Assembly: GCA_964016885.1 (NCBI GenBank)
Contig: OZ024742.1
Location: forward strand, 310,992,001-311,056,000
Direction of reading: 5' to 3'
Source: Eledone cirrhosa
Lineage: Eukaryota
DNA: 64,000 bases
The notes under the pieces were generated by a model. It did not search any database and was not told the origin of the DNA. It saw only the letters and a program-made list of their open reading frames with translations. Positions 1-64,000 of this stretch are shown here, one piece after another. Position 1 is the stretch's first letter. Each line of letters begins with the position of its first letter. The translations under genes and the position numbers were made by a program.

Positions 1-1091
1 ATGGGTAGAAGAACACAAAAAATAAAAATCCACACCATCCTGCCGATTATGGACATACGGTGGGTTTTTACAGGTTTCCTGGACCTGGATGATGACACGC
101 TGGTGTCCATGGGAAAGGCATCGGGTGACGCGTTCAGTGGAACGATCCTCGAACTTGTAGTTCAAATGAGGCCCGAAAGGATCGCCCAGATCCCTGAACG
201 CGTCATACTGGATGATCAAACTTTCATCAACATTACCGTTGAGGGTAGGCGGCCCTCGTGTTACCTCTGCGGAACCAGGGGTCACCTGAGCGCTGTCTGT
301 CCCCAACTTAATAAGAAAACCCCAATCCTGCCTACACCACCAACAACTGCACAACCAACACAATCACCACAACTACCACTACAAAAACAACCACCACAGC
401 TCAAACCAAAACAAAACAATGTCCAACCCATCCCCCCCACTCTAAAAACAAAAACAATTTCCAAAACCCCCGCACCGCAAACACAACCCGAAAATATACC
501 CCTCCCCTCCAACGCGGAAGATGACCCTAGTTCGTCGTCGGACGAGGAGGAGCACTTCCACACAATCAAAAAAAAAAAAAGAAAACACACCTCAGACACA
601 CAAATGAAAACAACCCCTCCCCAAAACATAACACTGACACCAACACAAAAGAGCTCACAACAACAGCAAACAAAAAACACCACACAAAAACAAAAACATG
701 CATACACATACATAAACACAAGAAACAAAAAACTGTTAAACATTGTGTACAACAACAATCTAATAAAAACCCAAGGGCCTAACTTCACCCAGGCAGGGGA
801 TTTCCCCCACCTCAAAATGATTAAGGCCCCACAGGACACCTATAAAACTTTAAAAAACAACTTTAAAGAGGACGTGGGTCCCCCCCCCCCCCCCCTGCGT
901 CGGGCCCATTAACCGCGTCCTCCTAAAAAAACTACCCCACCCCCTCCCCAAACACCCACACAACTCCAAACTCCCCAACCACACAACACACTGATGCCCC
1001 TACACTTCCACAAACCACCACCCCACCCAACAACCCATCCCCCACCCTAATGGAAATTGTGCAGCCCGATACCCGGGACGCAGAGAGGTAA
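1..1091 (+). pseudogene. Tx1 ORF1 (gag-like CX2CX4HX4C protein), copy A, frameshift in poly-C at ~880-896
   Basis: CYLCGTRGHLSAVC; after the C-run the shifted frame reads PCVGPINRVLLKNYP...DTRDAER* (homologous to PCLKPLNRVLLKDFP in copy B) and ends at TAA 1089-1091. Confidence 0.85.
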
Positions 1092-1093
1092 GT
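1088..1093 (+). promoter_or_regulatory. Putative 5' splice donor overlapping ORF1 stop (copy A)
   Basis: GAG|GTAAGT, perfect intronic U1 consensus; the TAA is the ORF1 stop. Confidence 0.6.
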
Positions 1094-1115
1094 GCCTTTT
1101 CTCTTAACCACCAAC

Positions 1116-4100
1116 ATGGCTATGCTAAGAGTAGGCTGTTTAAATTCGCGTGGCCTGGGCTCAACTTGGAAGCAAGCAATGCTTCTAAATGACCTCAGGT
1201 CACAACGTATAGATGTGATGGTTATTTGCGAGGCCCGGATCAGCAACGTGCGACAGCTGGCCCCCACCTTTGATGACTTTGAGATGCACGCATCTCTCTG
1301 TCAGCCCGGAGGTGGGGGTGGGGTTGTCGTTCTGCTGCAAAAACATCTGGGTCTCGCAACACAGATGGTACATTTGGGCCCGGAGGGTCGACTAGTGGTT
1401 CTGGACCTTGGCAGTGGTAAAGGCGGAGCGTTTAGGTTGGGAGCTGTCTACGGCCCTTTCGGGTCAATGCGGCCGGACTTCTTCCATCGTCTGGAGACTT
1501 TTCTAGGGACGTTCCGCTCCTTGCTATTAGTGGGGGACTGGAATGGTATCCTAGATGCACGCTGGGACTACGTAGGGGCCTGTCCCGATAGAGAGGGGAT
1601 AGAAAGGGTTAATCGGTCGATTTGACCTGGCCGATAGATATCGACTAGATTTTCCGACTGCGCCAACCTGGACTTGGGCAAATCGTAGCGGATCATCTAG
1701 GTCGTACCTAGATAGGTTCTTAGTTAGAATTAAGGATAAGGACTTTTTAAGTTGTCCAAAAATGCGCATGGTTGGCTATTCAGACCACAAATTAGTGACC
1801 TGCATGGTCAACCTTGACAGAACTCATAGACAGGGACCCGGTTACTGGAAGCTCAACTTGTCCTTACCTGCAAGTAAGGCTTACAGGGACCGGATTAGCA
1901 CTTTAGTTAAGGAGCGGTTGACGGGCGCCATCGTCAACAGCAGGTGGTGGGGATCTCTCAAAAGAGAGATTAGAGTAGTCTCTATAGAATTTAGTAAGGA
2001 GTTAGCCTCAAATAGAAATAGGAAGGAAAGGGAGTTGGTAGATAGTGTAGAAGAGGCAATTAGAAGCGGCGACGTGGCCAGAGTGCTAGCGTCGAGAACG
2101 GCCCTGGGCCAGTTCTTCGACGCGAAACACGAAGGCTGCATCGTCCGAAGCAATATACGTGCTCTGGGAAACGAGGGGACCAAAGCTGTTAGCTGGGCCC
2201 GCGTGACAGAAGCCAAAAGAGGGAGCAGATCCACTATCCGGTCTTTGCGAGACCAGAATGGACGGGTGATCCTTGAACCTAAGCAGATGTGCGAAGCTTT
2301 TCAAAAGCACTTTGCCGGATTGTTCGGAAGGGGCGGGGAGCCGGATGGGGATGTGGACTTCGGTCCATACCTCGACGGCCTGCCGCGTCTCTCGGACAGG
2401 GAGGCGAAGTCCTGCGAGGAGCCGATTTCAGCCGCTGAGATAGAGGACGTGCTGAGCCAATGCGGCAAACGCAAATCCCCGGGTCTCGATGGTCTTCCAT
2501 ACGAACTATATCTAGCTATGCCGGACTTGTTCCCCTATCTCCTTGAGGCTGTCTACTGCAACTGGCGACAGAACGGGAGAATTCCCTGTGCTGTGACCAA
2601 GGGCGTAGTCACGCTAGTGAGGAAGGACGAGAACAAGGGGGACGATATAAATAATTTCAGGCCCATAACTCTGCTAAATACAGAGTTACAGATTTTGGCC
2701 AAGGTGCTAGCAAAGAGGTTGGCGCATGTCGTGGGCAACCTGGTGGGAGGTGCGCAGACATGTGCTATCCCGTCCAGGTCTATCCACGACAACCTCCACC
2801 TCATGCGATACATCATAGAGAGGGTTGGGAACGAACCCGGCTTTGGTGGGGCCCTGATCAACTTGGATCAATCTAAGGCATTCGATAGGGTCGACCATGG
2901 TTACCTGGATGCGGTGCTAGCGGCGGCAGGCTTCGGACCCGTTTTCAGGGGTTGGATCAATGCCATGCACAGCAGCCGCATCTGCTCTAGGGTCAAGATG
3001 AACGGCTACCTCTCGGAGCCGTTCGAAATCGCGCGGTCCATCCGACAGGGGTGCCCTCTCTCCTCCCTTCTGTATGTAGTGACTCTAGAGCCACTGCTGC
3101 GGAAGTTGGAGTTGTTGCAGGGCATCCCGTTGGAACCGGGATTGCGGAAAGCGGTGTCAGCCTACGCCGATAACGTAACAGTAATGGTGTCGACGGCCTC
3201 GGAAATCGGGGTGATCGGCACCTTACTGGAGGAGTACGAAAGGTTTACAGGGGCTAAGCTGAACCGGGACAAGTCGATCGGTCTGCAACTCGGCACGTGG
3301 AGGGGCAGATCGATGCCCTCCGATGGCGTCGTCGGGCGCTGGACGGAGGGCCCGGTGAACTTGCTCGGGGTCTGGTTCGGACCAGACCTCCAGGTGGAGA
3401 AGAACTGGGGTAAGGTAACGAACAGGGTGTTTGCACTGACCCAGAAGTGGGCCGAGTGCAAACTGTCCCTGAAAGGTCGGGCGGAGGTGGCGAACACTTA
3501 TATAGCGTCCGTCATCTACTACCGCCTGACCGTTGTGCCTTGCCCAAGGGAAACGCTCGCCAAAATGGAGCGCGCACTCTTCCAATTCCTTTGGAAGAAG
3601 CGGGCTCCTATGGTGAGGAGATCCATCTGTTGTCAACACCCTTCGAAAGGAGGGCTGGGGATGCCGTGGCTAATGATACGTAAACACGCATTAAGGCTAC
3701 GGCACCTTCAGATATTCCTCTCCGGTCAACCGGTGTGGGCCCCGTTTGTGAGGCGAGCCTTTCCCAGACTCGTCTCACTCACCGAGCTGCAATCCTAGGT
3801 CAAGCAGAGACCGAGAAAACTGGGCGCCGAGTGTGCCCAGGCACTCACGGCTCTCTGGCAGGCGAACCCGGCTGTCAGTGGAGAATCCACCTCGTCATTC
3901 TATAGAGGGCTGGTGGTTAGCAGGTGCGACGACGCCCTAGGAGAAGCCCTAGGCATGGAGGAAGACGAACTGGCCAACCTGTTCGGTAGGACATTCAGCC
4001 CGGGACCCATGGATAACTTCCAGAGGTCCCTGGCCTGGCAATGCTACAGAAGGGCTCTGCCCGTTCGAGAAAGGCTCTACAGACACGGGCGCCCGGGTAG

Positions 4101-4536
4101 GGACCCCTCGAAAAAGATCTGTCCCAGATGCGTGTGCGACGAGGAAACCGTTGCACACGCATTGGTACACTGCTCGGGCATTGCCGATCTGTGGGGCTAT
4201 GTCGAACAACTGCTGTCAAGGGTGGGACCGATCCGGTTGACCACCGAGTCTATTGTAACGGTAAAGCCGCCTCCCCTCTTCAAAAACGAAGAAGAGGCGG
4301 TGCTTCTGTGCGTAATAGCCATGGCGAAAGAGGTTGTATGGTGGACGCGTCTGAAAGGACTGAGGTCAGACACCTTTCTCTCTGGCCAACAACTGGTCCG
4401 TTTCTTCCGATATCATTTCGGAAGAAAGATCAGGATGGAGAGAGAGGTGCTGCACCCCAGCCGTTTTTATGAAAGATGGGTGAAAGTGGCGAGAATGGCC
4501 CGTGTGAATGGGCCTTCACTCTACATCAGACTATAG
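1116..4536 (+). pseudogene. Tx1 ORF2 (AP endonuclease, reverse transcriptase, C-terminal zinc finger), copy A, inactivated
   Basis: ATG 1116; GDWN and SDH APE motifs; SPGLDG, RPITLL, KAFDRV, RQGCPLS; YADD is YADN; frameshift ~1590-1620; TGG>TAG at 3796-3798; CPRC..H..C near end. Confidence 0.92.
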
Positions 4537-4540
4537 GTGA
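4513..4540 (+). promoter_or_regulatory. Putative 3' splice acceptor coinciding with ORF2 stop (copy A)
   Basis: ccttcactctacatcagactaTAG|GTGA followed by purine-rich GGAAGATGAAAG. Confidence 0.45.
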
Positions 4541-4810
4541 GGAAGATGAAAGACCAAGGGAGCACCCCTTCTCTGTGCTCCTGAGGAAAAGGGTTGCACA
4601 CTTTTTTCGGGGGTGTGTGCGACCCCCCAAGGCGCCTCCTCTCTATTGAGGACTTTGTTATAAATTTTATTTTTTGTTATATTTTATTTTATTTTTATAT
4701 ATTGTTATTGCCTCCTCCTTATTGAGAACGCCTTGTTTTGTAAACTCCCCCCATTGTACTTGTCCCACTTTTGATGCCCTGGTGGCAAATAAAAGAAACA
4801 TATCTATCTA

Positions 4811-5197
4811 TAACTGATTCTTTTTTTCAAATACCACTTTGGAAGAAGAATCAGGATGGAGAGAGAGGTGCTGTACCCCAGCAAGTTTTATGAAAGGTGG
4901 GTGAAAGTGGCGAGAATGGCCCGAGTGAATGGGCCTTCTCTCTATATCAGCCTGTAGGTTGAGGAAAAGGAGGAGGAGAGGAAAGGAGTACAAACTCTTC
5001 GTACTCCTGGAGATGAGGGTTGCACATTTTTTTTCGGGGGTATGTGTTACCCATATAAACTGTCTCCCTCTATTGGCGAAAATCGACTAACTTTTTTAAA
5101 TTCCATTTGTGATAACATTTTACACGTTTTTATTGTATGTAAACTTCCCCCTTTGTATTTGTCCCCTTCTTTTGTGCCCCTGTAGCTAATAAAGAAA
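4811..5197 (+). mobile_element. 5'-truncated Tx1 copy (ORF2 C-terminus plus 3' UTR)
   Basis: Encodes ...RIRMEREVLYPSKFYERWVKVARMARVNGPSLYISL*; AATAAA 5188-5193; TATC repeats on both sides. Confidence 0.9.
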
Positions 5198-5487
5198 TAT
5201 ATCTATCTATCTATCTTGATAGAGTGAGACACGCTTCACATCGGCTCCGCTATTCTATCGGAATTTACCCTTACTATAGTAAGTACCAGTGAATTTTTTC
5301 AGTGCAACACATTTGGAACACTTACCCCTGTTATTTAGGGAAACATTTTTACATTTTAGGGGGTAAAATAAATAACTATTTTTCTGTAAAACTTCTTTCT
5401 TGGCAGCATGGCGGAAAAGATGGCAGATATGTCTGCCATTAGCTCTGCCACGCCCCCCCCCCCCCCCCCAAGTCTGAAGAACAAAAA

Positions 5488-7221
5488 ATGGATACAACAA
5501 AACTAGACAACGAAACAAACAAGGAAAATGAAAAAACAAATGTTACGGAAAATGAGCAAACGGAAAACAAACAAACAGAAAATAAGAATACAAATAACAA
5601 CAAGGCAACTTTCGCCCAGAAAACAATAATATATACACCTATAGACTTAACTGCCGCCAGAGAAAAACTGGCAGAAGCAAAAAAACACATAGTCTTGGGG
5701 GAGAACGGAATGTTTTCCATTAATTCCCCCCCAGAATTCAAGAAAGCGAGAATAGAAAGCACTGTTCTCTTCAGAACAATCCTAAACCAAACGAGAAAGC
5801 CAGCACAGCCCAGCCAAATGGAGATTGAGTTGGTCCTAAAAGACTATATGAAGAATATTCTCTTCATACGAAAGGACCGACTCTATGGCAGCATTTCGGT
5901 CTTAACAAAAGACAGGGAAACAGCGCAGAGGCTTTCCCTAAGCCCACTCTCATCAACAACATACAGCTTCTATCCCTCCTACATGGGTAGAAGAACACAG
6001 AGAGTCAAAATACAAACAATGCTGCCCACAATGGACTTCTGGTGTGCTATTGCTGGCTTCATAGACATGGGCGAGGACACAGTGCTGTCAATGGGGAAGG
6101 CATCTGGAGATGCGTTCCTGGGAATGGGCCTCGACCTACTAGTCCAAATGATGCCCGAAAGAATAGCGCGAATCCCGGATCGCATCTGGCTGGATGACCT
6201 CACCCCAATATATATAATTGTAGAGGGGAGAAGACCAGCATGTTATTCATGCACGGAAAGGGGACACGTTAAGGCTAACTGCCCGAATCGTATCCCCCAA
6301 AAAGGACTATTGCCCACACCCACCACAAACAGTACACCAACACCACCCACCTCCAAAAATACACTAATACCACACACAGCAAACAAAATACAGACACCAC
6401 CAACCACAAGCACAACACAAACATCACCACCACCAGCACCAAACACAAGCACGACACAAAAATCACCACCACCATCACCAACCACAACACAAACATCACC
6501 ACCACCATCACCAACCACAAGCACGACACAAACATCACCACCACCACCACAAAACGCATTCCAAACAAATAATAAAAAAAAAACATCAACAAATCTACCC
6601 CTCCCGCAAAAAAAAAACAACCAGACACCACGTCCCTCCCACCTAGCGCTGAAGAGTTTCCCCCAACTTCTGAAGAAGAAGGAGGAGAAGCCTTCAGACA
6701 AGTTAAAAGAAAAAAAAGAAAGCACACACCCAGCACACCACAAATAACCCACACACAAACACCAACTCCAATCAGCCTCGACAAACAAAAATAAATCTGC
6801 GCCTCCCCTCTTCGAAACATTGACAGCATCACAAAAAAAGACTTTACAATACACATATATAAATAAAGAAAATAAAAAACTGTTTAAATTAATAAACAAT
6901 AGCCCTTTGGTGCAGACCGAAGGGCCAAACTTTATCTCAACAGAGAACTTCACCCATTTAAAAATGATAAAGGTCCCTCTGGACCTTTATCGTTCCTTAA
7001 AAGAACAATTTATACAGGACGTGAGCCCCCCCCCCCCCCCCCCCCCCTGTTTAAAACCGTTAAATCGCGTCCTCTTGAAAGATTTCCCCATAACCTCCCC
7101 TCTCCCTGACACAACTCCAAATACCCCAACCCCACCACACTCGGATACCCCACACCACCACAAAACATCCCTCCACCCAACACACCCGACGCCATGGAAA
7201 TTACACAACCCGGAGAGGTAG
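5488..7221 (+). pseudogene. Tx1 ORF1, copy B, frameshift in the A-rich low-complexity region ~6570-6620
   Basis: ORFs 5488-6747 and 6820-7221; CYSCTERGHVKANC knuckle; C-terminal block homologous to copy A; ends PER* TAG 7219-7221. Confidence 0.88.
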
Positions 7222-7223
7222 GT
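7218..7223 (+). promoter_or_regulatory. Putative 5' splice donor overlapping ORF1 stop (copy B)
   Basis: GAG|GTAGGT; the TAG is the ORF1 stop. Confidence 0.55.
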
Positions 7224-7252
7224 GCTTTTCTTTCTTCACTTTCAACACCAAA

Positions 7253-10200
7253 ATAGATCAATTGAGAGTTGGCTGTTTGAATGCGCGTGGCCTGGGCTCA
7301 GCTTGGAAGCAAGCAAAGCTTCTAAGTGACCTCAGGTCACGAAGTATAGATGTGATGGTTGTTTGCGAGAGTCGGATCAGCAGCGTGCGTCAGCTGGCTC
7401 CCGCCTTCGATGACTTTGAGATGCACGCATCTCTCTGTCAACCCGGAGGCGGGGGTGGGGTTGCCGTACTGCTGGATAAACGTCTGGCTCTCGACGTACA
7501 GATTGTTCACTCGGACCCGGGGGGTCGATTACTGGTGCTGGACGTCGAAGGCGGTGAAGGCGGGGCTTTCAGACTGGTCGGTCTTTATGCCCCCTTCGGG
7601 GCTGAAAGAGCCGACTTCTTCCAGCGTCTGGAGACTTTTCTAGGAACGTCGCGTTCCCTGCTTTTAGTGGGGGACTGGAATGAAATCCTAGATGCGCGTT
7701 GGGACTATGCAGGGGCATGTCCAGATAGAGGGGGGTGTAGCAGCCTCAAGGGGTTACTCGATCGATTCGACCTGGTCGATAGATTTCGACTAGATTTTCC
7801 AACTGTGCCAACCTGGACCTGGGCAAACCGCAGTGGTCAATCTAGATCGTACCTAGATAGGTTTTTGGTTAGGAGTAAGGATAGGGACGTATTTAGTTGT
7901 CCAGAATTGCTCATGGTTGGCTATTCAGATCACAAATTAGTGACCTGCGTGGTCAACCTTGATAGAACGCATAGACAGGGTCCCGGTTACTGGAAGATGA
8001 ACTTGTCCTTGCCGGCAAAGGAAGCTTACAGGAACCGGATCAGTAGCTTAGTTAAGATGCGGTTGACGGGAGCGATCGTCAACAGCAGGTGGTGGGTATC
8101 TCTAAAGAGAGAGATTAGAGTAAGTTCGATAGGTTACAGTAAGGAACTAGCGGCGAATAGAAATAGGAGGGAAAGGGAGTTAACAGATAAACTAGAAGAG
8201 GCGATTAGGAGCGGAGACGTGGCCAGAGTGTTAGCGGCGAGAACGGCGTTGAGCCAGTTCTTTGACGCGAAGCACGAAGGCTGCGTTGTCCGAAGTAAAA
8301 TATGTGCTTTAGGAAACGAGGGGACCAAAGCTGTTAGTTGGGCCCGCGTGACAGAAGCCAAGAGTGGGATTAAATCCACCATTCGGTCTTTGCGAGACCA
8401 GGATGGACGGGTGATCCTTGAACCTGAGCGGATGTGCGAGGCCTTTCAAAGGCACTTTGCTCGACTGTTCGGAGGGGGTGGGGGGGCCGGACGGGGATGT
8501 GGACTTCGGTCCATACCTCGACGGTCTACCGCGTCTTTCGAGCGGCGAAGCGCAGTGCTGCGAAAGGCCAATCACAGCCACTGAAATCGGGGAAGCGCTC
8601 AGCCAATGCAGCAGACGCAAATCTCCGGGTCTCGATGGTCTACCATACGAACTTTATTTAGCTATACCGGTCTTGTTCTCCGAACTCCTCGAGGCTGTCT
8701 ATTGCAACTGGCAACAGAACGGGAGAATTCCCTGTTCTGTGACCAAGGGCGTAGTCACGCTAGTGAGGAAGGACGAGAGCAAGGGGGACGACTTAAGTAA
8801 CTTTAGGCCCATAACTCTGCTGAATGCAGAGTTACAGATTTTGGCCAAGGTGTTGGCGAATAGGTTGGTGCTTGTGGTGGGTGGTTTGGTGGGAGACGCG
8901 CAGACATGCGCTATCCCGTCCAGGTCTATTCACGACAACCTCCACCTCATGCGATACATCGTAGAGAGGGTTGGGAACGAACCCGGCTTTGGTGGGGCCC
9001 TGATCAACTTGGATCAATCTAAGGCGTTCGATAGGGTCGACCATGGTTACCGGGATGCGGTGCTAGCGGCGGCGGGCTTCGGACCCGTTTTCAGGGGCTG
9101 GATTTCTGCCATGCACAGTGGCAACGTCTGCTCTAGGATTAAAGTAAACGGCTACCTCTCGGAGCCGTTTCAAATCACCCGGTCCATCAGGCAGGGGTGC
9201 TCCCTCTCCTCCCTTCTCAACGTATTGACTCTCGAGCCACTGCTGCGGAAGTTGGAGTTGCTGCGGGGCATACCCCTGGAACCGGGATTGCACAAAGCGG
9301 TCTCGGCCTATGCCGACGACGTAACAGTAATGGTGGCGGACGCCTCGGAAATCGGGGCGATCGTCACCCTACTGGAGGAATACGAAAGGCTGACGGGGGC
9401 TAGGCTGAACCGGGACAAGTCAGTCGGTTTGCAACTCGGAACGTGGAGGGACAAACCGATGCCGTTAGACGGTATCGTCGGGCGTTGGACGGAGGGCCCG
9501 GTGAAGCTGCTCGGGGTCTGGTTCGGATCGGACCTCCAGGTGGAGAAGAATTGGGGCGAAGTGACGAGCAGGGTGTTTGCGCTGACCCAGAAGTGGGCCA
9601 AGTGCAAACTATCACTGAAAGGTCGGGAGGAGGTGACGAACGCTTACATAGCGTCCGTCATCTACTACCGCCTGACCGTCGTGCCTTGCCCCAAGGAAAC
9701 GCTCACCATCATGGAGCGCATGCTCTTCCAGTTCCTCTGGAAGAAGCGGCCTCCCATGGTGAGGAGATCCATCTGCCAGCACCCTTCGAAAGGAGGGCTG
9801 GGTATGCCGTGGCTGTTGATTCGTAGGCACGCATTGAGGCTACGGCATCTACAGGTATTCCTCACCGGTCAGCCGGTGTGGGCCCCGTTTGTGAGGCGAG
9901 CCTTCCCACAGCTCGTCTCGCTCACCGAGCTGCAATCCTGGGTGAAGCAAAGACCGAGAAAACTGGGCAACTGGCACACCGAGTGTGCCCAGGCGCTCAC
10001 GGCTCTCTGGCAAGCGGACCCGACTATCAGTGGAGAATCCACCTCGACATTCTATAGAGGGCTGGTGGCTAGCAGGGGCGACGACACCCTTGGAGAGTCG
10101 CTAGGCATGGAGGAGGACGAACTGGCCAGCCTGTTCGGTAGAACTTTCGGCCCGGGACCCATGGACAACTTCCAGAGGTCCCTAGCCTGGCAGTGCTACC

Positions 10201-10688
10201 GGGGGGCTCTGCCCGTTCGAGAAAAGCTCTACAGACACGGGCGCCCGGGCAGGGATCCCGCGAAAAAGATCTGTCCCAGATGCGTGCGCGACGAGGAAAC
10301 CGTTGCGCATGCACTGGTACACTGCCCGGGCGTTGCCGATCTGTGGGGCTACGTCGAACGACTGCTGTCGCGTGTGGCGCCGATTCGATTTACCGCCGAG
10401 TCTGTGGTGAACATCAAGCCGCCTCCTCCCTTCAAAAATGAAGCAGAGGTGGTCTTTCTGTGCGTAATAGCCATGATGAAAGAGGTTGTGTGGTGGACGC
10501 GCCTGAAAGGTCTGAGGTCGGGTGACTTTCTCTCCGGCCAACACCTGGTGTACTTCTTCCGATACCACTTCGGAAGAAGGATCAGGATGGAGAGAGAAGT
10601 GCTTGGCCCCAGACAGTTTTATGAAAGGTGGGTGAAAGAAGCGAGAATGGCTCGTGTAAATGGGCCTTCTCTCTACATTGTTCTGTAG
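7253..10688 (+). pseudogene. Tx1 ORF2 (APE-RT-ZnF), copy B, one frameshift in G-run ~8475-8487, start codon ATA
   Basis: ORFs 7262-8584 and 8418-10688; YADD intact; ATA at 7253 aligns with the ATG of copies A and C. Confidence 0.92.
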
Positions 10689-10692
10689 GTGA
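10665..10692 (+). promoter_or_regulatory. Putative 3' splice acceptor coinciding with ORF2 stop (copy B)
   Basis: ccttctctctacattgttctgTAG|GTGAAGAAG: strong pyrimidine tract, then GAAGAA-type purine-rich sequence. Confidence 0.55.
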
Positions 10693-10893
10693 AGAAGTGA
10701 AGAGGAAAGGGGGAGCGCCTCCTCTCTGGGCTTCCCCCGCGAAAAGAGTTGCACACTTTTCGGGGGTATATTATTATTATATTTTATTATTATATTATTC
10801 TTATTGTTATGCCTTTTTCTTTACTCGCATTTATGTAAACTCCCCCCTGTGTATTTGTCCCTTTCTCTTGTGCCCTAGTGGCAAATAAAGAAA

Positions 10894-11059: not shown

Positions 11060-14577
<3,518 letters not shown>

Positions 14578-59509: not shown

Positions 59510-59758
59510 TTTCTTTATTAACCACAAGGGTTTACATAAAGTAGACATTAAGGACAGTGCAGGACAATACAGGACGGTACAAATGGGCATTTCTGCGTGT
59601 AAAAAACAAAAACAGAGGATGTAACAAAAAAATAACAATGAAAAATTCCCCAATAGAGGGGAGACTTCGGAGGGACATTTGTGGAGAAAGCCCAGTAAAA
59701 GGCCACAGTGACCCTGACCACCAAGGCAAGTGCCCTCTCCCAGTTTTCCACCTTTAAT

Positions 59759-62700
59759 TTACAGATATATACTCAGAGTAGGCCCATTCACTCAGGCCAT
59801 TCTTGCTTCTCTCACCCATCTTTCAACAAAATGCTGGGAAGAGAGCACTTCCCTCTCTACCCTGATTTTCCTTTTCAAATGAAATTTGAAAAAGTCAATC
59901 AGGGCATCACCGAAGAGGTAAGTGCTCGTCTTCAGCCCTTTCAAACGTGTCCACCATACTATCTCTTTCGCCATGGCCACCAGACAGATAAAAATTGCCT
60001 TCCCTTCCCGGCTAAAGGAGGAGGGCGGGGCAATCCTCACGATGGACCCAGATGATAGCCGGATCCGTCCTACACGCGACAGCAGGTGTTCGACATAAAC
60101 CCACAAGTCAGCAATTTTCGGACACTGGACGAGTGCGTGCAGGACGGTTTCGTCGCCCTGCGCGCATCTCGGACATGCCCGGCTGACGGCACCTCCATGC
60201 CTGTAGAGTTTATCCCGAACTAGCAAGGCTCCTCGGTAGCACTGCCAGGCCAGAGATTTCTGGAAGTTGTCCATAGGCCCCGACCCGAAAGTTCTTCCGA
60301 AGAGATTGGCTAGTTGATTTTCGTCGACGCCTAGAGTTTCCCCAAGTACGTCGTCGCTCTTCCCCTCCACTAATCCTTTATAGAACGCCGAGGTGGAGTT
60401 TCCACCGATCACATTGCCCGATTGGTCGAGGGCTGTGAGCGCCTGAAGATATTCCAGTCTCCAGGCGCTCCCTCTCGGTCTTCGCTTGACCCAGGACTGC
60501 AGCTCCGTCAAGGAAACGAGCTGGGGAAATACGTGTCTAGCAAACGGCGACCACACCTGATCACCGTCGAGGAAGAGGTGGAGATGTCGTAGCCTGAGCG
60601 CGTGCCTGCGCATCATCAGCCACGGCATGCCCAGCTCTCCACGTAGCGGGTGTTGACAACAGATGGACCGCCTGACCATCGGAGCGAGTCCCTTCCACAA
60701 AAAACGAAAGAGCAAACGCTCCAGCGCAGTCAGGCGAGGCTTAGGACAAGGTACGACGGTCAGGCGGTAGCAGATGACAGACGCGATGTACGCGTTAGCC
60801 ACCTCCGCTCGACCTTTCAGGGATAGCTTCCTCTCCGCCCATTTCTGGGTGAGAGAAGCCACCCTGCTCGTCACCTCGTCCCAGTTTTTGTCCGTCTGGA
60901 GGTCCGGACCGAACCAGACCCCTAGCAATTTAACCGGTCCGTCCGTCCAGCGTCCGACGACGCTGTTGGACGGCATGGACCTGCCTCTCCAGGTGCCGAG
61001 CTGCAGGCCCACTGACTTTTCCTGGTTGATCATGCTCCTGTCACCGCTTCGTATTCTCTTAGTGTAGTGCCGATCGCCTCGATGTGTTTGGCGTTGAACA
61101 CCACTACGGTGACATCGTCCGCATATGCTGACACGGATCTTCCGCATCCTAGTTCGCGCGGGACGCCCCTCAACGTCTCCAGTTTGTGCAGTAATGGCTC
61201 GAGAGTCAATACGTAGAAGAGGGACAAGAGGGGACATCCTTGGCGGACCGAGCGCATGATGTTGAACGGTTCCGAAAAGTGACCGTTCACTCTCACCACA
61301 GAGCAGATGTCGCTGTGCATGGCAGCGATCCAACCTCTGAAGACGGGCCCAAAGCCAGCCGCCCTCAGGACTGCCGCTAGGTAACGATGGTCGACCCTAT
61401 CGAAAGCTTTCGACTGATCTAAATTGATCAAAGACCCACCCGTGCCAGGTTCCCCAGCTACCCTCTCTACGATGTATCGCATGAGGTGGAGGTTGTCGTA
61501 GATGGATCTGTCGGGAATGGCGCATGTCTGCACCTCTCCCGCCAGACCACCAACGACAAGCGCCAACCTCTTTGCTAGCACTTTGGCCAAAATCTTGAAC
61601 TCTGTATTTAGCAGGGTTATGGGCCTGAAATTATCTATGTTATCCCCCTTGTTCGGATCCTTTCTCAGCAGTGCCACTGCTCCTCGGCTCACAGAGCTGG
61701 GAATTCTCCCATTCTGTTGCCAGTTGCAGTAGACGTCCGCCAAGAGGCCTCCGAACAAGTCTGGCATCTGTACGTAAAGTTCATAGGGCAGACCATCCAA
61801 ACCAGGCGATTTACCCCTTGTGCAGCCAGTCATTGCCTCCCGTACTTCAGCGGCTGTTATCGGCTTTTCGCAACACTCCGCCTCAGTGGTCGAGTTAGAC
61901 ACTAAAGTCCATCCCTCGACCCGGCCCGCCGCTGCCCCCGAGCAGCTGAGCGAAGTGTCGCTGAAAAGCTTCACACATTTGCCCGGGATCGAGTAGCATG
62001 CGCCCGTCGTGGTCCACCAAAGACCGGATCGTGGCTTTGTTGCCACGACGCGCCTCCGCCACTCGGGCCCATTGAACGGCTTTCGTCCCCTCGTGTCTGA
62101 GAGCACGCACTCTAGCTCTGACAACGCAACCTTCGTGCTTTGCATTGAAGAATTGGTCAAGGGCCAATTTCGCCGCAAGCACGTCGGTCGCGATGACTTT
62201 GCTAAGTGCCTCGTCTAATTTTCTAACTAGTTCACCCTCTGCTCTATTTTTCTCTATTGCTAAAGCCTTACTAAACCTAATGGATTCTATTATAATCGCT
62301 CTATTCAGAGCAAACCACCACTTGTTGTTGACGATGGCCCCCGTCAACGCCCGCTTAACTAGTTCGCTAATCCGGTCTCTGTAGGCCTTGCGCGCTGGTA
62401 AGGACGCGTTTAGCTTCCAGTAGCCGGGTCCTCGTCTATGAAGCCTATCTAAGTCAAGCACACAGATCACGAATTTGTGGTCCGTGTAGCTGACTATCTT
62501 GAATTGTGGACAGACTATGCTAGACATATCTATTTCCCTACAAAATACTCTATCTGGATATGATCTGGATGACCCTATGCGATTTGTCCAAGTCCACATT
62601 GGCACATTCGGGAAATCCAATCGGTACCTGTCAGACAGTTCAAAACGCCTGAGCAGGTTGGTGAGGCTCTTGCACCCTCCACCCCTATCCGCTAATCCCA

Positions 62701-63157
62701 CACAGTCCCAGCGTGCATCTAAGATCCCGTTCCAGTCGCCCACTAACACTAAAGAGCGGGACGTTCCAAGAAAGGTCTCCAGACGCCGGAAAAAATCAGG
62801 CCGCCCTGCTCCTGTCGGGGCATAGACGGCCACTAGCCTGAAAGCTTGCCCGTCTCCGTTGGTCACGTCCAGCACCACCAACTTACCCTCTGGGTCCAGG
62901 AAGATGGCCCGTATGGCGAGATCCAAACCTCTCCGAAAAAGCACAGCAACTCCTCCCCCCGATCCAGGACGGCTGGGAGATGCGTACACATCGTAGCTGC
63001 CGAAGATCGGTGCGAAGGCCCGTGCTTCGGAGATTCTGGTCTCGCTGATGGCCACTACATCTATGTTTAGTGACCTGAGGTCGTTGAGCAGGTGACCCTG
63101 CTTTCATGACGACCCCAAGCCACGCGCATTTATGCTGCCTATTCTGAGTGAGGTCAT
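59759..63157 (-). pseudogene. Tx1 ORF2, copy C (stops and frameshifts)
   Basis: ATG 63157; TGG>TGA ~63105; ORF pieces 61895-63055, 61030-62178 (YADD), 59792-61333; stop TAA 59761-59759. Confidence 0.92.
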
Positions 63158-63190: not shown

Positions 63191-63196
63191 ACTTAC
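63191..63196 (-). promoter_or_regulatory. Putative 5' splice donor overlapping ORF1 stop (copy C)
   Basis: ACG|GTAAGT; the TAA is the reconstructed ORF1 stop. Confidence 0.6.
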
Positions 63197-64000
63197 CGTA
63201 CTTTTCGTAGAGGAAGGATGGTTTCTCCATCCCTTTTCACATGATCGTCTGGTGAAGGGACCGTTGAATCGTCCCTTCGGCTGGTCGTCGGCTCTTCTAT
63301 GAGTATGTCCGAATATACTCTCCGGTTGAGAGTCCCTCCTAGGTCTCTGAAATCACCAACTGCGTTGGGAAATTTCGTTTTAATGTTTGTGTATTGTTTC
63401 TGTGCTATTTTTACCAGTCTTATTTCTGTGCTATTTTTACCAGTCTTATGTTCGTTGGCGTTTTGATTGGTGCTGGTATTATGTAGTCGTGCTGTGAAAT
63501 GTCTGTGTGTTCAATTATGTAAGTCATTAGTTTCTTGTGTGTATTTATTGCCGTGCATTTGTTTTTCTGGGGGTGGGGTGTGGTTCTGCTATTTTCTTGT
63601 CGTTGTTGCTGGGTGTGTGTGTTTTGTTGTTGTGTTTGCGATGTTGGTGCTTGTGATGGTGGTGTTGAAGGTGTTGTTGTTGTTGTTGTTGGCGGTGGGG
63701 TTGTCGCCGGTGGTGATGGTGGTGCTAGTGTGGGTGGTGATGGTGTTGGTGGTGTTGCTGCTGTGAGTCTCTTTGCAGTAGCCTTTACCCGTTTTTCATT
63801 TCTTTCCTCCCTTTTCGAAGGCGACGATGCGCTGCTTCTGCGTTTCTGCCTTCTTACGACCTTTTGCCATCCCTCTCCCACCTCACACTCCATGTCTGAT
63901 TCTGTGAGGTCGGGGAGGGGTACCAGCTCCACTCTTTCACTTGTCGTTGTTGGTGATGTTTGCAGTGGAGTCTCTGTTGCAGCTGCATTTGGTATTACTG
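63193..64000 (-). pseudogene. Tx1 ORF1 C-terminal part, copy C, broken by a 26-bp tandem duplication (63397-63448)
   Basis: Removing the duplication gives IRLVKIAQKQYTNIKTKFPNAVG...LPLRKVR*, homologous to LKMIKAPQDTYKTLKNNFKEDVG in copy A. Confidence 0.8.

Follow-up and report, generated by a model that had tools for sequence, protein, structure and literature searches.

The 64,000-nucleotide stretch of the Eledone cirrhosa genome analyzed here, termed the window (contig OZ024742.1, positions 310,992,001 to 311,056,000), carries several long interspersed nuclear elements (LINEs), presumably of the Tx1 clade, in which an open reading frame (ORF) for a zinc-knuckle protein, ORF1, is followed by a second, ORF2, encoding the endonuclease and reverse transcriptase (RT). 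A U1-type splice donor motif at the end of ORF1 is conserved in these elements beyond chance. We place at roughly 0.4 the probability that the motif, kept at the ORF1 stop, serves to splice out ORF2 to an AG at its very end, leaving a short ORF1-only mRNA. The first 11 kb of the window form a head-to-tail cluster of related LINEs, consisting of copy A, the 3′ end of a family C element and copy B, and a more diverged element of family D occupies the minus strand at about 59.5–64 kb. The family letters are those of this analysis, and the genome searched comprises 3.0 Gb.

Donor Motif at the End of ORF1

The motif in copy A, GAG|GTAAGT (1085–1093, GT at 1088–1089), is in phase 2 and contains the ORF1 stop codon TAA (1089–1091). 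A pyrimidine-rich spacer without AG (1094–1115) leads from the donor to the ORF2 ATG, and the interval from the GT to the ORF2 stop TAG (4534–4536) measures 3449 nt. In copy B the motif GAG|GTAGGT (7215–7223, GT at 7218–7219) is in phase 0 and lies within ORF1, with 3471 nt separating the GT from the end of the ORF2 stop TAG (10,686–10,688). These positions agree with an earlier sequence-only reading of the window, as do the TAG|GT of the third, family C fragment (4955–4959) and the AATAAA signals at 4788, 5188 and 10,884. The family D donor, ACG|GTAAGT (63,191–63,199, minus strand), is located at the ORF1 stop ahead of an ORF2 ATG at 63,157.

The same reading had ORF2 bracketed from stop codon to stop codon in both copies, with joining giving an identical Glu-Arg-stop terminus. 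For family A the bracketing stands, because an ORF1 of at least 458 codons ends at the donor TAA in 8 of 29 copies and in no copy in another frame; in family B the TAG within the donor is not the ORF1 stop. A base absent near 7148 in window copy B is present in 24 of the 29 measurable family B copies, and an ORF1 of 495–606 codons reads through the donor to a stop 11 codons further on (7254–7256 in the window) in 7 of 30 copies, a long ORF1 in the Glu-Arg-stop frame being found in only 1 of 30. The identical termini of copies A and B are thus an accident of the 1-nt deletion in window copy B, and joining family B in its own frame adds 3 codons. The donor itself reads GTAAGT in 16 of the 30 family B copies and GTAGGT in 13, with one copy mutated.

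Sixteen lineages were collected from the genome and compared using one copy each (for lineage J a copy with an intact motif), lineages H, H2, F and K resting on one to three decayed copies. The sequence G|GTRRGT is positioned 28–52 nt upstream of the ORF2 start codon in 14 of the 16, and the two deviants keep G|GTRA. The spacer downstream is 75–87% pyrimidine in all 16 lineages, rich in indels and variable in length. A motif filter was passed by 36 of 40 copies, and in the lineage majorities derived from these, donor positions −1, +1, +2, +5 and +6 are invariant in 11 of 11, whereas the flanks vary (four-fold tree length 2.37). As a neutral baseline, 65 of 299 four-fold degenerate ORF2 sites are invariant (22%), and the three donor positions free of Arg-stop coding therefore give a chance of about 1% by hand arithmetic. 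Scored against the general donor consensus rather than the genome's own, 10 of 12 junction windows match at 8–9 of 9 positions compared with about 1.2% of 588 background windows.

Greater weight than the invariance figure is carried by the three reading phases in which the motif occurs and by the donor of a family from a second host. The donor is in phase 2 in lineages A, D, E and H, in phase 1 in C, I and J and in phase 0 in B; three copies (L297, L105 and L118) deviate through private indels and several gave no phase, and the assignments were taken from other copies and from open ORF1 frames.

Relatives in a Second Host

The second-host family, L304, is a sister clade (97/93) with an ORF2 identity of 40%. 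Its donor matches the consensus at 9 of 9 positions and is non-coding, being placed one base past the ORF1 stop and 8 nt ahead of the ORF2 ATG, and it is present in 76 of 76 flank matches (overlapping loci). Among more distant relatives (22–32% identity) the motif was not found: of 39 junction windows only that of L304 scores at least 8, and none of the other 38 does.

L304 and a further family of this host, L303, also carry a strong donor within 50 nt of the ORF2 stop (8479–8487 and 8497–8505, respectively), followed by a U-rich tract. In the 3′ untranslated regions (UTRs) of the L304 type, each of the 8 subfamilies has a pyrimidine-rich YAG about 230–260 nt beyond this second donor. None of the 29 distinct 3′ UTRs is spliced. 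The elements form tandem arrays in a record filed as a bacterial metagenome-assembled genome, and the contigs bearing them are likely host contamination.

Acceptor and Reading Phase

Several observations weigh against the removal of ORF2 by splicing, and they concern the donor, the acceptor and, as described in the next section, the genomic copies. Part of the donor conservation may be attributable to the Arg-stop coding, and L303 lacks a good donor where its ORF1 ends. Of 12 lineages, 11 use TAG as the ORF2 stop, with a mean pyrimidine fraction of 0.63 and frequent competing AGs, a retention that is unsurprising because 22% of four-fold sites are invariant anyway. In family D the stop is TAA (59,759–59,761, minus strand) and the candidate acceptor AG is lost. 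When the 45 conserved YAG columns are ordered by pyrimidine content, the ORF2-end TAG comes 7th, and 8 of 11 lineages have a second AG at most 13 nt upstream of it. Joining to the TAG adds no codons in A, C, E, I and J and 3 codons in B and F; it adds 27–72 codons in A2, A3, A4, H and D, that is in 5 of 12 lineages. The claim that the ORF2 TAG is itself the acceptor is consequently unsupported, and the expectation of a GT/AG context shared across families is borne out for the donor but not for the TAG, which is kept no better than neutral sites.

The candidate acceptor of copy A is pyrimidine-poor, with 32 of 108 YAG sites of the element equally rich, and that of copy B falls within the top 6 of 111. 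The upstream AG of copy A belongs to a CAG (4527–4529, AG at 4528–4529) 7 nt before the ORF2 stop, an alternative candidate acceptor that fits the phase-2 donor. These candidate acceptors are not clearly above chance. No acceptor internal to ORF2 stands out by synonymous constraint, and one ahead of the ORF2 start, which would give an ORF2-only mRNA, was rejected, the spacer having no AG in 13 of 16 lineages.

The lineages that fail at the TAG all carry the upstream AG, in the ORF2 frame and fitting their phase-2 donor, and in the lineages without it (B, E and I) a stop lies directly behind the TAG in their own phase. With either AG in the last 13 nt of ORF2 admitted, at most 3 codons are gained in 13 of 13 lineages in their own phase, compared with 9 of 26 in the other phases (hand count). 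The resulting p of about 0.04, a hand estimate over independent phase changes that is qualified by a post hoc rule, shared ancestry and the apparently mosaic nature of at least one lineage (H2), makes the match of donor phase to terminal AG a hint. H2 (L127, minus strand) is a collinear element whose best match alternates between C and A/F types along ORF2, and it is likely a recombinant lineage.

Two further features surround the ORF2 end. An AG|GT at this point could act as a second donor and is plausible in A and E but absent in I and J, and as a site that is not conserved it was set aside. A second stop (TGA, TAA or TAG) is placed 2 bases past the ORF2 stop in C, H, I, J, D and some G copies (4957–4962 and 59,759–59,754 in the window), and is retained even in family D, which lost the AG.

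Search for Spliced Genomic Copies

A probe for the A-type junction has no match in the genome. Among 1,517 copies with an A-type exon end, 27 are not followed by GTA, and 27 of 27 run on into the spacer and ORF2; the remaining 1,490 were not inspected individually. Three variants at the family B exon end comprise one point mutant and two unrelated places. A wider probe covering the A, B, C and E types, which was limited to exact matches and had no positive control, returned 14 matches, all to another repeat. In the fetched loci, mostly found through ORF2, ORF2 follows the end of ORF1 in 137 of 137, and every flank match in the second host is unspliced. Two contigs of unrecorded kind, one crossing the family B donor and one its ORF2 stop unspliced, are counted neither for nor against, and the same applies to the 4 joints listed for such contigs, 0 of which fall at a donor; contigs tend to lose rare forms, and a greater depth over ORF1 contigs is no basis for ranking the parts.

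Set against 5,294 ORF2 3′ ends, the lack of spliced copies leaves no place for ORF1-only retrocopies, which the sequence-only reading had offered as a possible product, or for splicing in which ORF2 is retained. Its weight against an mRNA lacking ORF2 is only moderate, because the RT of L1-type elements favors its own RNA (PMC5860796). Tx1 elements, however, are thought to mobilize other RNAs in trans (PMC4494074), and some spliced copies might therefore be expected.

Proposed Mechanism and Alternative Explanations

In the proposed mechanism U1 would bind the donor and splicing would use, depending on the lineage, either the stop-codon TAG or the AG 7–13 nt before it. Use of the donor removes the ORF2 start, so that any splice from it would yield an ORF1-only message. 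For this message to be short and to keep the normal poly(A) signal, the acceptor would have to lie at the ORF2 end or within the 3′ UTR. Nonsense-mediated decay follows a 50–55 nt rule, and with the junction at or just before the stop codon the spliced RNA would escape it. The spliced mRNA would raise the amount of ORF1 protein (ORF1p) over ORF2 protein (ORF2p), and the unspliced RNA would make ORF2p and serve as template. Genomic copies of the spliced form would arise too rarely to be detected, probably since the RT prefers its own mRNA. Comparison across the lineages, their phases and L304 lends support to the core of the earlier proposal, in which a functional donor at the ORF1 stop removes ORF2 when used, but the splice is a prediction from sequence.

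A somewhat doubtful explanation, and the one that fares best among the alternatives, is that the donor is a real U1 site not paired with the ORF2-end AG, which shields the full-length RNA from premature cleavage and polyadenylation, governs 3′-end formation or export, or is joined to an acceptor inside the element or in the host. The good conservation of the donor beside the poor conservation of the acceptor is consistent with such a site, as are the absence of spliced genomic copies and the post-ORF2 donors of L304 and L303, whose U-rich tracts lie in unspliced 3′ UTRs. U1 at the donor of the Arabidopsis element EVD represses early termination (PMC5580714). Against this explanation, no conserved poly(A) hexamer is found near the donor (5 of 7 lineages listed), and family C has none in ORF2 or in the 1.5 kb upstream of the donor. 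The explanation also leaves the match of donor phase to terminal AG without a cause, and synonymous constraint marks no internal acceptor for it.

It is unlikely that the motif is unrelated to U1 and represents an Arg codon and a stop in a context favored for termination and re-initiation of coupled ORF2 translation, inherited from one ancestor, with the TAG|G at the ORF2 end of the same kind. In most lineages positions +2 to +4 form a stop codon, with each of the three stops represented. Termination is favored by a purine that follows the stop, and the pyrimidine spacer together with the CAACATGG context could serve re-initiation. Of the four-fold sites, 22% are invariant in any case, and L1 retains donors that are mostly unused (PMC5860796). 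Coding context does not account for a motif that outlasts the shift of the stop in B, C, I and J and is located outside the stop in L304, nor for a match to the donor consensus at 8–9 of 9 positions.

A mini-intron of 41–66 nt that begins at the donor, ends with the AG in the first Arg codon of ORF2 and fuses ORF1 to ORF2 is very improbable and was rejected as largely refuted by the genomic copies. Phase-2 donors would give an in-frame join rebuilding the Arg codon (read from the alignment), but in B, C, I and J the join loses the frame, and the pyrimidine tract adjoins the donor and not the AG. An RNA of this kind, which carries the code for its own RT, would be expected among the genomic copies, whereas 0 of 14 copies with a non-G after the exon end show the join.

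Element Class, Abundance, and Targets

The ORF2 domains identified by Pfam are PF03372, PF00078 and PF13966, the last of these (zf-RVT) at or slightly under the cut-off. ORF1 is a separate frame of 540–640 codons in which zf-CCHC is detected below the cut-off in 3 of 4 cases (E 0.009–0.24). Together with dispersed, mostly 5′-truncated copies without long terminal repeats (LTRs) and a 3′ AATAAA, these are the traits of an L1/Tx1-type non-LTR retrotransposon. Exact matches number 5,294 for the ORF2 end and 2,202 for the ORF2 start (different patterns), and the 30 best copies in each of families A and B share 96–98% identity; the families are abundant and young. A TATC repeat lies downstream of 49 of 57 A and B copies, and an ATT repeat follows 8 of 9 copies in D and 10 of 11 in J. 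The microsatellite targets are thus TATC in A, B, C, E and H and ATT in D and J, a preference that fits the Tx1 clade. Membership in Tx1 is consistent with the domains and targets, and the label is one that we take over from the earlier reading, since the RT tree has no named Tx1 row and the matches carried no clade name. The closest named protein match is from Argonauta hians. A homologue search with ORF1p gave no match, and a search of viral contigs found no relative.

Elements and Other Features of the Window

Copies A and B are both broken. ORF1 of copy A (1–1091), which starts upstream of the window, has frame breaks near 886, where a C run is lengthened, and at 931; its ORF2 (1116–4536), with APE endonuclease, RT and zf-RVT domains, is interrupted by deletions near 1599–1603 and by a stop at 3796–3798. 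The 3′ UTR (4537–4793) contains a short hairpin and the AATAAA and is followed by a TATC repeat. The 5′-truncated family C element (4812–5193) has its ORF2 stop TAG at 4955–4957. In copy B, ORF1 (5408–7256) has several indels, including the deletion near 7148, and is followed by ORF2 (7253–10,688), frameshifted near 8479, and by a 3′ UTR (10,689–10,889) with a hairpin. The family D element has its AATAAA at 59,519 and an ATT-repeat tail. A second 3′ fragment of a family C ORF2, at about 16,100–16,220 on the plus strand, ends before the stop codon. On the minus strand a 504-codon open frame (12,473–13,987) resembles, by eye, a Penelope-type RT with a GIY-YIG-like end.

Family B differs at the start of ORF2, where an ATA overlapping the ORF1 stop (7253–7256 in the window) stands in 30 of 30 copies at the site of the ATG of other lineages, and the first in-frame ATG comes only past the N-terminal endonuclease motif. 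The frame is under purifying selection, with a ratio of nonsynonymous to synonymous polymorphism of 0.21 for shared and 0.61 for private changes (p 1.8e-4), and is therefore probably translated, either through re-initiation at a codon other than AUG or through a −1 slip as the ribosome reaches the stop. C runs in ORF1 (880–896 and 7026–7047) and a G run in ORF2 of B (near 7445–7460) vary widely in length from copy to copy and often break the frame, which may reflect slippage or assembly error.

The 3′ UTR hairpin follows a purine run (4559–4585, 10,708–10,738 and 4985–5009), and among 8 sequences both sides have changed in 1 of 6 consensus pairs. It is a possible, though weakly supported, RT recognition element.

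Discussion

The high ratio of ORF1p to ORF2p in LINEs is usually ascribed to inefficient re-initiation on one bicistronic RNA. We tentatively propose that a branch of Tx1-like LINEs, in octopods and at least one other animal host, treats the whole of ORF2 as a retained intron, with an ORF1-only mRNA made from the donor, the unspliced RNA acting as RT source and sole template, and phase, AG and stop having shifted together. Such an arrangement would be the LINE counterpart of shGAG in Ty1/copia elements.

In the Arabidopsis Ty1/copia element EVD the donor both makes a short GAG mRNA and protects the full-length RNA (PMC5580714), which means that a splice skipping ORF2 and protection by U1 can be one mechanism. 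The likeness to EVD lies in a U1-type donor conserved at the end of the structural gene, and in EVD the spliced short mRNA gives an excess of structural protein and the unspliced RNA is the template. EVD, however, is an LTR element that has a single ORF and whose short intron is coupled to early termination, as established by experiment (PMC5580714), whereas the present elements are bicistronic LINEs known from their sequence, with a predicted 3.4-kb intron that ends at the ORF2 end and a normal poly(A) signal.

Conserved splice sites in a LINE of the L1/Tx1 group have a precedent in human L1, in which spliced RNAs can retrotranspose and SpIREs amount to 131 of 6,609 full-length L1s (PMC5860796). 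The L1 splices described there remove parts of the 5′ UTR and ORF1, keep ORF2 and harm the element, whereas the present donor sits at the ORF1 stop, its use would remove ORF2, and the searches gave no spliced copy. The half-L1 element HAL1 resembles the predicted product in being ORF1-only and derived from an L1-type element, but is a genomic non-autonomous family (PMC5753468), and the genome searched here yielded no copy with ORF1 alone that is joined at these sites. The Tx1-clade elements Kibi and Koshi share the APE-RT-zinc-finger ORF2, the zinc-knuckle ORF1 and insertion into microsatellites; the targets here are TATC and ATT, and a splice-site architecture is not mentioned for Kibi and Koshi in the part of the source drawn on (PMC4494074). 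Drosophila TART is likewise a non-LTR element with mapped splice sites, but its introns are in antisense transcripts (PMC1636488). By analogy these LINEs would work like Ty1/copia shGAG, and they are not members of shGAG, HAL1 or SpIRE. In the literature searched no paper describes this architecture in a LINE; most subscription journals and the Repbase notes fell outside that search, and novelty is unproven.

Even if no splicing takes place, the persistence of a donor at stop codons between proteins of 40% identity is an RNA signal that calls for an explanation and can be tested. If the proposed splice is real, it would be a second solution to the requirement for excess ORF1p, convergent with that of copia elements, and would give the host spliceosome a handle on the RT dose of a very abundant and recently active family.

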